A stretch of DNA of 64,000 nt, taken from positions 2,395 to 66,394 of the forward strand of contig CAVIAA010000001.1 of the NCBI GenBank assembly GCA_963640685.1. The letters are read 5' to 3'. Below, piece after piece: positions 25,401 through 27,952 of this stretch (the first letter of the stretch is position 1; each line of letters begins with the position of its first letter). The position numbers and the translations under genes were made by a program. The DNA is from Acutalibacteraceae bacterium. GTDB lineage: Bacteria > Bacillota > Clostridia > Christensenellales > CAG-138. The notes below the pieces were generated by a model. The model did not search any database. It had not been told where the DNA came from and saw only the letters and a list, made by a program, of their open reading frames with translations.

Positions 25401-25436
25401 GCCTGTCAACAGCCCTATTTGTTGACAGGCTTTTTT
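25401..25436 (+). terminator. Intrinsic terminator after mntP
   Basis: GCCTGTCAAC-agccctattt-GTTGACAGGC followed by TTTTTT. Confidence 0.85.
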
Positions 25437-25450
25437 ATGGGAATTATAAT
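25422..25450 (+). promoter_or_regulatory. Consensus sigma-A promoter placed for a leaderless transcript
   Basis: TTGACA (25422..25427), 17-nt spacer, TATAAT (25445..25450). The ATG at 25457 is only 6 nt after the -10 box, and there is no RBS. Confidence 0.6.
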
Positions 25451-25456
25451 CAAGGC

Positions 25457-26365
25457 ATGAATCGCGAAGAGCTTGACCGTAAAGCGGCGAGGGCGAAGGA
25501 TCGCCGTATATATCATATTTGCTCGGCAAAGAGGGCTGCTGCGGCGCTTATGGCGGCGGGTCTTCTCTGCTCTGCTGGCTGCGCCAAAAAGCAGGCCGCA
25601 GAGGACGACACCTATGTAATGGTGGATATAGGCTACTTCAACGAGGAGAACTACGGCGACGACACAACGTTCGTTGCGATAACCGGCGGGTTTTCAACGC
25701 CGGAGCCTGCGGTAACGCCTGTTCCGACGCCGGAGCCAACGGCAAAGCCGCGCAGCACAAAAAAACCGAGCAGCACCGCAAAGGCGGACAAAAAAGAAGA
25801 GACAAAGAAGGAAGAAAAAAAGACCGAGGAGGAGAAGGCCGAGGCTACGCCAACGCCTGAGCCGAAGAAAAAGACCCCATATTACAGTAGCTACACCAGG
25901 CAGTCGCTTTCATATGAGAGCGGTTCGTCTGCTGTGAGCTTTGAGACGACCACATTTGACGGCAGCAGCGTCAGTGAGAGCATCTTCAGCAAGAGTTTTG
26001 TCACCATGATAAACATATGGACGACTACCTGAGCGTCCTGCATGCAAGAGATGGGTGATCTCTCAGAACTCGCAAAGGAATATAGCGGCAGCGGCTTCAG
26101 GATATATGGCCTTGCGGCGGATGTTACGCCGGATTCCTCAACGCTTATAGCCAGCGCAAAAGCCCTGTTTGAATCGGCAGGGGGCAGCCATACCAACCTT
26201 ACCTGCAGCACCAGCGCCCGCAGGGCGATGATGGACGGCGTGAGCGTCGTGCCCACGACCAAGTTTTATGACTCGGAGGGCAAGCTCATAACCGTCGTTC
26301 ACGGCGCAAAGAGCAAGCAAAAATGGATAGATATAATTGAGACGGTGATGAATGAAAAAGCGTAG
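25457..26365 (+). CDS. Exported TlpA/ResA-like thioredoxin-fold protein; candidate selenoprotein with a UxxC redox motif (UGA 26030..26032 read as Sec)
   Basis: Track ORFs 25457..26032 and 26042..26365 share one frame. Read-through gives MINIWTTT-U-ASC-MQEMGDLSELAKEY, in register with the NFWATWCxPCxxEMP consensus. The C-terminal half carries VVPTTKFYDSEGKLI. The N-terminus has a signal anchor (AAAALMAAGLLCSAGC) and a PT/KE-rich linker. Confidence 0.7.
26047..26063 (+). promoter_or_regulatory. SECIS-like hairpin downstream of UGA 26030
   Basis: AGAGAU-GGGUG-AUCUCU: a 6-bp stem starting 14 nt after the UGA, with a 5-nt loop starting with G. Confidence 0.6.
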
Positions 26366-26492
26366 TATTATTTCTCTTGCAATAGCAGCGGTGGGCTTGA
26401 CCTTTATCGTCATAGGCGCGGTAAGGGGCGAGGCTGGTGCCGTTATGCAGAAGGCTGTAATGATATGCATGGAGTGTATAGGCCTTGGATAA
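26352..26492 (+). CDS. 46-aa single-TM micro-protein with a C-terminal CxxC (resembles, from memory, the 'CD1871A-family CXXC' small proteins)
   Basis: Absent from the ORF track because it is under 60 aa. Translation: MKKRSIISLAIAAVGLTFIVIGAVRGEAGAVMQKAVMICMECIGLG. It overlaps the upstream stop by 14 nt and the downstream start by 8 nt. Confidence 0.65.
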   Translation: MKKRSIISLAIAAVGLTFIVIGAVRGEAGAVMQKAVMICMECIGLG

Positions 26493-27411
26493 GAAAAAGA
26501 GCAAAAAAAACAAAAATAACCACCCCTTTTTAAGGGCGAGGACCTACTTTCAGGCCTGCTGGACGCTGCTTACAAACAGCTATGCCTCAGGCTTTATAAA
26601 CGGAACGATATATCAGGGCGGAGTTAAAAGCGTGTGCGTGCCCGGGCTGAACTGCTATTCCTGCCCCGGCGCGTGGGGCGCCTGCCCGCTGGGCTCGCTG
26701 CAGAACGCACTTGCGGGCAGGGTGCAGGGCTTCCCGTTTTACGTCGTAGGGACGCTGATAACGATAGGCGCGCTGCTGGGCAGGATAGTCTGCGGCTGGC
26801 TGTGCCCGTTCGGCCTCGTGCAGGATCTTCTGTTCAAGCTGCCGCCAAAGCGGAAAATACGCGCGCTGCCCGGCGAAAGATATCTGCGCAAGCTGCGCTA
26901 TGTGATACTCGTAGTCATGTGCATACTGCTGCCGATGCTGGTAAAAACATCCTACGGCCTCGGTATGCCGTGGTTCTGCAAGTGGATATGCCCCTCAGGA
27001 ACGCTGCTGGGCGGCCTGCCGCTCTTTGCGCTGAACGAGAGCCTGCGCAGCGCTGTCGGCTGGCTGTTCAGCTGGAAGCTGTTCCTGCTGGTCGTGATAC
27101 TGCTATGCTCTGCGCTCATGTTTAGGCCGTTCTGCCGGTATCTGTGCCCTCTCGGCGCGATATACGGGCTTATGAACCCCGTGTCCCTCGTAAGGATGCG
27201 GGTGAGCAGGAGCCGCTGCACGCAGTGCGGCGCCTGCCAGCGTGCCTGTGGGCTGGATATACCGGTATACAAGGAGCCTAACTCGACCGACTGCATACGC
27301 TGTGGAAAGTGCGTCACGGTATGCCCGAGCAGCGCGCTGAAGCTGAACGTTGAGCTGAAGGGCAGGCGCAAGCGCAGGCGTACTGCCGAGGAGAGCGCGG
27401 ATGAGGTATGA
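26485..27411 (+). CDS. NapH/YccM-like membrane polyferredoxin (4Fe-4S binding protein)
   Basis: Four CxxCP/Cx3CP motifs (CYSCP, CGWLCP, CKWICP, CRYLCP) between TM segments. Two ferredoxin motifs follow: CTQCGACQRAC and CIRCGKCVTVCP. The TTG start is 8 nt after GGAGTG. Confidence 0.8.
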   Translation: MDKKKSKKNKNNHPFLRARTYFQACWTLLTNSYASGFINGTIYQGGVKSVCVPGLNCYSCPGAWGACPLGSLQNALAGRVQGFPFYVVGTLITIGALLGRIVCGWLCPFGLVQDLLFKLPPKRKIRALPGERYLRKLRYVILVVMCILLPMLVKTSYGLGMPWFCKWICPSGTLLGGLPLFALNESLRSAVGWLFSWKLFLLVVILLCSALMFRPFCRYLCPLGAIYGLMNPVSLVRMRVSRSRCTQCGACQRACGLDIPVYKEPNSTDCIRCGKCVTVCPSSALKLNVELKGRRKRRRTAEESADEV

Positions 27412-27952
27412 GCCGGAGCTGATACGCCTTAAGAACAGAAGCTACGGCGTGCTCCGCAGCCCGAGCCCGGCTGAGGGCGGCAGAGTGCTGGAGCTGATGC
27501 GGGCCTGCACCGCCGAAACCGAGTACCTTATAGAATATCCGGATGAGATAAGCCATAGCGACGAGAGCGAGGCTGCGCTTATATTTGCAGCCGGCGAATC
27601 AGCGGGCAGGCTGCTCATCGTTTGCGATATCGAGGGTGAGCTTGCAGGGCTCTGCTCGCTCAGCTGCGATGGGATCACGAAGTTCAAAATAAGGCACCGC
27701 GCCGCGGCCGGCATATGCATATTAAAAAAATACTGGGGCATAGGCATTGGCAGGGCGATGATGAGCGCAATAGAGGCGCAGGCCAAAGCGGCGGGGCTTA
27801 GCCAGCTCGAGCTGGAGCTTATAGAGGGCAACGAAAGGGCAATGGGGCTTTATTCCGCACTTGGCTACCACGAGACCGGAGCGCTGCCAAATGCGATACG
27901 CACAAGAGATGGCAGGAGCCTCAGCCTGTACACTATGATAAAGCAAATATAA
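27401..27952 (+). CDS. GNAT family N-acetyltransferase
   Basis: Acetyl-CoA motif ILKKYWGIGIGRAMM...NERAMGLYSALGY. It overlaps the upstream gene by 11 nt. Confidence 0.8.
   Translation: MRYEPELIRLKNRSYGVLRSPSPAEGGRVLELMRACTAETEYLIEYPDEISHSDESEAALIFAAGESAGRLLIVCDIEGELAGLCSLSCDGITKFKIRHRAAAGICILKKYWGIGIGRAMMSAIEAQAKAAGLSQLELELIEGNERAMGLYSALGYHETGALPNAIRTRDGRSLSLYTMIKQI

Follow-up and report, generated by a model that had tools for sequence, protein, structure and literature searches.

DsbD, CcdA and ScsB carry reducing equivalents across the membrane to the exported TlpA, ResA, CcmG, StoA and Etrx thioredoxins. The NapH, NosR and RdhC (PceC) membrane proteins have a four-helix module with CX3CP motifs after helices 2 and 4, and NapH and NosR end in two C-terminal 4Fe-4S motifs. 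To our knowledge, how strict anaerobes without cytochromes or quinones keep their surface thiols reduced is poorly understood. Here we analysed a 64,000-nt window, meaning the whole stretch of DNA from contig CAVIAA010000001.1 of an Acutalibacteraceae bacterium, in which a 46-aa micro-protein is encoded between a TlpA-like thioredoxin-fold lipoprotein and a membrane polyferredoxin that shares the helices, CX3CP positions and 4Fe-4S motifs named above. Conserved gene order, selenocysteine (Sec)/Cys exchange at C39 of the micro-protein and fusion architectures lead us to favour, with moderate confidence, a role for the micro-protein as a small redox-active outer-face subunit of a putative Fe-S-driven transmembrane disulfide reductase that feeds the upstream Sec thioredoxin, which would be the same job as that of DsbD, CcdA and ScsB. 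All coordinates are positions in the window, and all features listed are on the + strand. The gene trio and the elements of the micro-protein are as follows.

25457..26365, + strand: TlpA/ResA-like thioredoxin-fold lipoprotein with an in-frame TGA at 26030-26032 (WTTT-U-ASC), assigned from its frame, weak matches and orthologues.
26352..26492, + strand: CD1871A-family micro-protein, 46 aa, predicted single-pass with N-terminus in and C-terminus out, assigned from the open reading frame (ORF), profile match, homologues and the ratio of non-synonymous to synonymous differences (pN/pS).
26367..26423, + strand: transmembrane (TM) helix of the micro-protein, SIISLAIAAVGLTFIVIGA, codons 6-24, with a hydropathy peak of 2.65 and an aligned helix in AlphaFold2 (AF2) models of the homologue at locus L032.
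26466..26477, + strand: C39-M40-E41-C42, the conserved C-x-E-C of alignments A2 and A5, followed by I-G-L-G and the stop codon.
26485..27411, + strand: NapH-like membrane polyferredoxin, 308 aa, TTG start, matching Fer4_5 three times and Fer4, with NapH models below cutoff.

The micro-protein ORF starts at ATG 26352 and ends at TAA 26490-26492, giving the product MKKRSIISLAIAAVGLTFIVIGAVRGEAGAVMQKAVMICMECIGLG. The upstream thioredoxin frame closes inside it at TAG 26363-26365, an overlap of 14 nt, and the TTG start of the polyferredoxin at 26485 precedes its stop codon, an overlap of 8 nt within CTTGGATAA. C39 is encoded by TGC at 26466-26468, and C42, the fifth residue from the C-terminus, by the codon at 26475-26477. 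An earlier note on this DNA had described the same 46-aa ORF, with a basic N-terminus, one TM helix and a C-terminal CxxC, as a bridge between the Sec thioredoxin and polyferredoxin genes. Translation, hydropathy, charge and residue positions bore out this description, and the two measured overlaps confirmed the bridge. The note had also allowed that conservation here might fit only the overlapping frames. Comparison with the nearest relatives gave pN/pS of 0.24-0.29 in the micro-protein frame and of 1.05-4.6 in the other two frames, and third codon positions took most of the substitutions. Because pN/pS is low in the micro-protein frame only, the conservation is not owed to the overlapping frames. 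These results indicate that the ORF is a genuine gene under purifying selection in its own frame only. The note's remark that gene callers easily miss it needs qualification, as the ORF was already called in several public assemblies. Two 46-aa relatives in NCBI records of metagenome-assembled genomes (P0016 and P0018) carry the name 'thioredoxin', probably a wrong name taken from the gene next to it. The ORF is best annotated as CD1871A-family, neither left uncalled nor named 'thioredoxin'.

The likeness to the CD1871A family named in the note proved, when the profile search was run, to be true membership. NCBIfam NF040920 ('CD1871A family CXXC motif-containing protein') matched residues 10-46 on model positions 2-38 of 38 with 55.4 bits (E 4.1e-15), against a curated cutoff of 32 bits, and no Pfam model matched the micro-protein. 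The product has the form of this family, with the hydropathy peak at residues 6-24, then C39/C42, IGLG and the stop; its size, its N-terminal helix and its C-x-E-C-I-G-[IL]-G end all agree with the family, and we found no sequence difference that sets it apart. A word-indexed search returned 28 close homologues with 61-100% identity to the window peptide and a shared C-terminus, including two N-terminally extended ones at 61-63% identity. A HMMER search of 1.84 billion representatives gave 1,495 clusters (50% identity) at E<=1e-3; most of the best 150 of these homologues were 43-100 aa long, and the C-x-E-C-[IV]-G-[IL]-G end was present in all of the approximately 65 sequences inspected among them. 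The residues C, E, C, G and G were invariant in alignments A2 and A5. By its sequence, the micro-protein is thus a new member of a catalogued family that bears a name only.

The gene neighbourhood was compared across distant relatives. A scan of one genome per species confirmed at least 544 relatives of the micro-protein, from which 80 loci were kept (79 after one duplicate was dropped); they came from Clostridia of many families, at least seven Treponema, two Negativicutes and one Acidobacteriota. In 77 of the 79 distant loci the gene immediately following, on the same strand, encoded a polyferredoxin at 40-59% identity, and a polyferredoxin gene was also beside the micro-protein gene in all four close relatives. 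One of the two exceptions (L010) is a contig end, and the other (L079) has a radical-SAM gene in its place. In this last locus (L079:4280-6847) the thioredoxin and the micro-protein are kept, and the 579-aa radical-SAM-like protein overlaps the end of the micro-protein gene. The projected polyferredoxin start was at most 60 nt from the micro-protein stop in 72 of the 77 loci, and overlaps of 8 or 14 nt were common. A TlpA-like protein with W-x-T-x-C-x-P-C was adjacent, mostly upstream, in 58/79 loci by tblastn and in 66/80 by clustering, and 40 of 68 such proteins had a lipobox-like motif. Clustering of genes within 4.5 kb across the 80 loci found no other neighbour family in more than 15 loci, no recurring nap, nos or rdh genes and no recurring family of maturases for ribosomally synthesized and post-translationally modified peptides (RiPPs). 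A radical-SAM gene occurred near the micro-protein only in the closest relatives, on the opposite strand, and in L079. These results indicate that the polyferredoxin, micro-protein and thioredoxin form a conserved and tightly coupled trio.

The upstream gene of the trio is likely to encode a selenoprotein. The ORFs 25457..26032 and 26042..26365 are one frame broken by a single TGA, and the read-through product has a lipoprotein-like N-terminus with weak ResA, DsbE, TlpA and StoA matches. The TGA occupies the first active-site position and would give U-x-x-C; in distant orthologues the corresponding motif is W[AG]T[FWY]-C-x-x-C (C-x-x-C in 52 of the 53 scored), and the close relatives L001-L004 retain the TGA-split gene. 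The 51 nt after this UGA folded no more stably than shuffled sequences (z 0.16). By eye, a stem of 6 bp (AGAGAU/AUCUCU) closed by a GGGUG loop can be drawn there.

The downstream polyferredoxin has four helices, and its sequence carries the CX3CP motif three times, the loop C-x5-C-x2-CP-x5-CP and two 4Fe-4S motifs of the ferredoxin type. Each of its 18 cysteines is conserved in 99-100% of 75 sequences. The first loop holds C51, C57, C60 and C67; C103/C107 follow helix 2, C165/C169 lie in the stretch from helix 3 to helix 4, C217/C221 follow helix 4, and the remaining eight belong to the ferredoxin motifs. The hydropathy profile showed three strong helices and a weak first helix with invariant Q23 and N31. 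Since the N-terminus and the 108-136 loop are rich in K/R and the Fe-S domain should be cytoplasmic, the four-Cys loop and C165/C169 are predicted to lie on the outer face, and the remaining two CX3CP motifs to lie on the inner one. The protein missed the cutoffs of the NapH models TIGR02163/NF007013 (82.6 vs 213.05 bits and 78.4 vs 234 bits), and Pfam found in it Fer4-type families only and no DsbD/CcdA membrane domain. Two loci have a second, standard NapH-like paralogue after the module, followed by a 136-aa secreted-looking protein (L027:6003-6887 and L047:6042-6884). This paralogue lacks the loop cysteines, has the two standard CX3CP motifs only and is not accompanied by a separate micro-protein.

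Topology was examined through charge distribution and through longer members of the family. Across the family the N-terminus has a net charge of +2.3 and the tail of -0.4. Long members of 240-290 aa carry the same domain and tail after four extra helices and pass NF040920; their N-terminal domain had no Pfam match above cutoff, and the sole NCBIfam match above cutoff was NF040920 on the tail. In one long form with five helices (P0340, locus L094), K and R are concentrated in the even-numbered loops, and this charge pattern puts the CxEC tail outside. We therefore predict that the micro-protein has a cytoplasmic N-terminus and a CxEC tail outside the cell. In three of three look-ups, five-helix long forms were followed by a polyferredoxin-Redoxin/AhpC-TSA fusion of 521-586 aa, made up of the polyferredoxin, one extra TM helix and a thioredoxin-like domain with WYTTCGPC. 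This architecture puts the ferredoxin part on one side of the membrane and the thioredoxin part on the other, and the fusion links the polyferredoxin and thioredoxin functionally.

Other candidate fusions were rejected. The longer polyferredoxin homologues P0190, P0191 and P0204 contain internal duplications and are not fused to the micro-protein; the duplicated segment is helix 3-4 with its CX3CP, which could be an assembly artefact or a real duplication. The long polyferredoxin ORFs of L028, L063, L070 and L016 have N- or C-terminal extensions and no thioredoxin domain. A paralogy of the micro-protein with the polyferredoxin N-terminus was suggested when MAFFT aligned the micro-proteins with the N-terminal helix and CYSCP loop of the polyferredoxin; it had a profile-profile probability below 1% and was an alignment artefact. 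In L016:5001-6290 and L070:5001-6626 the micro-protein and polyferredoxin share one frame with a single stop between them (TAA in L016, TGA in L070). The polyferredoxin of L016 has one extra N-terminal TM helix and that of L070 several, including a DUF5684 domain; one helix, as in L016, is what a fused protein would require to lead from a tail outside the cell to an N-terminus inside it. This arrangement may record a fusion or fission event.

Metagenomes were scanned with the pattern K-A-x-x-[IV]-TGA-x-E-C-I-G-[IL]-G-stop, which carries about 47 bits and by our estimate, with an assumed collection size, would give well under one chance match. Nine metagenome loci with six distinct sequences had TGA at the C39 codon. 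In each locus the sequence before the TGA was that of a full-length homologue, with the helix and the R-x-E...V-L-x-K-A region, and the seven codons after it ([LV]-E-C-I-G-[IL]-G) were kept in frame with synonymous differences. For five of the six sequences the contig also carried a polyferredoxin. No stop codon interrupted the frames of the adjacent polyferredoxin and thioredoxin genes, so these organisms do not generally read TGA as sense. All six forms could build a hairpin of 5-7 bp from the I-G-[IL] codons and the sequence beyond the stop codon; its GG(G/U)U loop sits some 21-24 nt downstream of the UGA. At this exact register 6-7 contiguous pairs were found in 4/6 Sec forms and in 0/80 Cys forms, which had at most 5 pairs and mostly three or fewer; the Sec-form stems are themselves short. 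Minimum free energies after the Cys/Sec codon did not separate Sec from Cys forms in the whole set (p 0.32) and separated them in the low-GC subset (p 0.004). The search for a selenocysteine insertion sequence matched no Rfam family. Taken together, the sequences suggest that the TGA at the C39 position of these relatives probably encodes Sec. The Haft selenoprotein preprint deals with another system. Exchange of Sec and Cys is known to mark catalytic redox cysteines, and at C39 it makes a thiol/selenol relay more likely than a metal ligand with a purely structural role. The lineage of the window has its putative Sec in the thioredoxin and keeps TGC in the micro-protein, and this Sec fits thiol/selenol chemistry through the module.

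The micro-protein and polyferredoxin were also modelled together. In some loci the two genes share a frame with one stop codon between them, and AF2 was run on the L032 Treponema micro-protein joined to its polyferredoxin by reading this stop as Gly, with alignment A4 of 68 polyferredoxin sequences. This artificial read-through fusion had a pLDDT of 88.6 and a pTM of 0.86, and the micro-protein appeared in it as helix 2-22, a turn, and helix 25-40 ending at the second cysteine. Helix 2-22 was present both in the fusion and in the micro-protein modelled alone, and compared with the latter the first helix and hinge gained confidence (93/97/92 vs 85/85/72). Foldseek against the PDB and PDB sequence searches matched the ferredoxin domain only, leaving the membrane part and the micro-protein unmatched.

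In the mechanism that we propose, the polyferredoxin would take electrons on its two cytoplasmic [4Fe-4S] clusters. The electrons would pass its membrane Cys motifs, from the inner-face CX3CP pairs to the six invariant cysteines in the two outer loops, and the C39/C42 dithiol of the micro-protein would then enter thiol-disulfide exchange on the outer face. The final acceptor would be the exported TlpA-like lipoprotein, here the putative U-x-x-C selenoprotein, which in turn would reduce cell-surface targets. Both the direction of flow and the order of the cysteines in this relay are conjectural, and electron transfer from the cytoplasm to the exported thioredoxin-fold protein is suggested by gene order and the fusions.

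Several points weigh against this proposal. An adjacent thioredoxin is missing from 13-21 of the approximately 80 loci. The Sec forms were found with a pattern that requires the downstream motif, so that their conservation is partly built in. In the artificial fusion the CxEC end lost confidence compared with the micro-protein alone (75 vs 89), probably an effect of the artificial linker on the model. We found no solved structure that explains the passage of electrons across the membrane. A literature search for CD1871A returned no paper on a function or partner of the NF040920 family, and searches on NapH-like/TlpA/CcdA, on NapH with thioredoxin and selenocysteine, and on CX3CP returned nothing on the module. 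The role of CX3CP in NapH, NosR and RdhC is itself unsettled between a disulfide and a cluster ligand (PMC5928378).

The strongest alternative, which we nevertheless judge unlikely, makes the micro-protein a structural metal-binding subunit, a wire or clamp rather than part of a thiol-disulfide relay. C39 and C42 would join the six loop cysteines C51, C57, C60, C67, C165 and C169 in one or two extra Fe-S or other metal centres, and the ligand count fits, 6 + 2 = 8. The C-x-x-C-x-G at the end of a helix, as modelled by AF2, resembles a metal-binding knuckle, and it is established that Nqr and Rnf share Fe-S clusters between two membrane subunits. The micro-protein also keeps the polyferredoxin (77/79) more steadily than the thioredoxin (58-66 of about 80), and the NapH-like paralogue without loop cysteines has no micro-protein. 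The motif is, however, predicted on the outer face, and neither the micro-protein nor the polyferredoxin has a twin-arginine motif; cofactor-bearing domains normally reach the outer side through twin-arginine translocation. Sec in place of the first Cys is moreover typical of catalytic redox residues, and we know of no case of selenocysteine as an Fe-S ligand. NosR, a related protein, was reported to hold no Fe beyond the eight in its two ferredoxin clusters (PMC5928378), which also counts against additional centres.

A reversed direction of flow is a distinctly less probable alternative. The trio would then be a quinone-independent counterpart of DsbB/VKOR that oxidises the exported thioredoxin-fold protein, for the formation of disulfide bonds, and sends electrons inward to Fe-S. 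The architecture alone fixes no direction, and most such anaerobes are generally thought to lack respiratory quinones, both of which agree with this alternative. The active site of the partner, however, matches that of the reducing TlpA/ResA proteins (W-x-T-x-C-[GSNP]-P-C, CGPC being commonest, and U-x-x-C here), and electrons passing from thiols to clusters of the ferredoxin type would go uphill, from about -200 to -270 mV to about -400 mV, as is well established. Least probable is that there is no stable membrane subunit at all and the ORF encodes a signal peptide releasing a CxxC peptide of about 16 residues, a RiPP precursor or a sequence for coupling only: an A-G-A motif does precede V31 in the window sequence and the overlaps with both flanking genes suggest translational coupling, but the small residues at -3/-1 are not conserved in the family (e.g. 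E-F-R, N-R-E, G-D-T), the same domain forms the fifth helix and tail of polytopic proteins, no maturase gene is conserved nearby in the 80 loci, and the gene is under purifying selection with its last 13 residues near-invariant even where the genes do not overlap.

Two further features flank the trio.

25422..25450, + strand: promoter-like TTGACA-17-TATAAT of the sigma-70 type (12/12), a consensus match only.
27401..27952, + strand: GNAT acetyltransferase (Acetyltransf_1, 49 bits), overlapping the polyferredoxin gene by 11 nt.

We found no convincing + strand terminator between the promoter-like site and 28100, and co-transcription of the module is therefore likely. The promoter match ends 6 nt before ATG 25457, so that the first gene of the module may be leaderless, and its -35 hexamer sits in the 3' arm of the terminator (25401-25430) of the preceding mntP-like gene. 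The GNAT gene was absent from all 84 related loci, and in the closest relatives the opposite-strand radical-SAM gene occupies its place. By this distribution, the GNAT is a lineage-specific passenger outside the conserved module.

The gene set is very common, with about 1,500 representative clusters and at least 544 scanned species genomes, in gut Clostridia, Treponema and Negativicutes. Compared with NapH, NosR and RdhC, the polyferredoxin of the module has one CX3CP more, its third, and a loop with four Cys, on what is predicted to be the outer face, and we know of no family in that group for which a CxxC micro-protein has been described as partner. In chemistry the proposed reductase would resemble ferredoxin:thioredoxin reductase and heterodisulfide reductase, with one-electron Fe-S centres driving two-electron disulfide reduction; no homology to them was detected, and they are soluble or peripheral and do not transfer reducing power across a membrane. 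We tentatively raise a broader possibility, which we hold with less confidence than the function proposed for the micro-protein: next to DsbD/CcdA and DsbB/VKOR, the trio may be a third kind of conduit for thiol redox across the membrane, a quinone-independent surface thioredoxin reductase driven by Fe-S clusters at the ferredoxin level. On the outer face, C39 (Sec in some lineages) would act as its nucleophile, and the system would replace CcdA in many strict gut anaerobes. If the mechanism proposed above is right, it would be a new way of exporting reducing power, would give a clear role to a 46-residue protein, and would explain why selenocysteine is found in different members of the module in different lineages. 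The module has no sequence relationship to DsbD, CcdA or ScsB. In contrast to DsbD/CcdA, its likely electron source is at the Fe-S/ferredoxin level rather than cytoplasmic thioredoxin, and the work would be split between the polyferredoxin and a separate 46-aa subunit.

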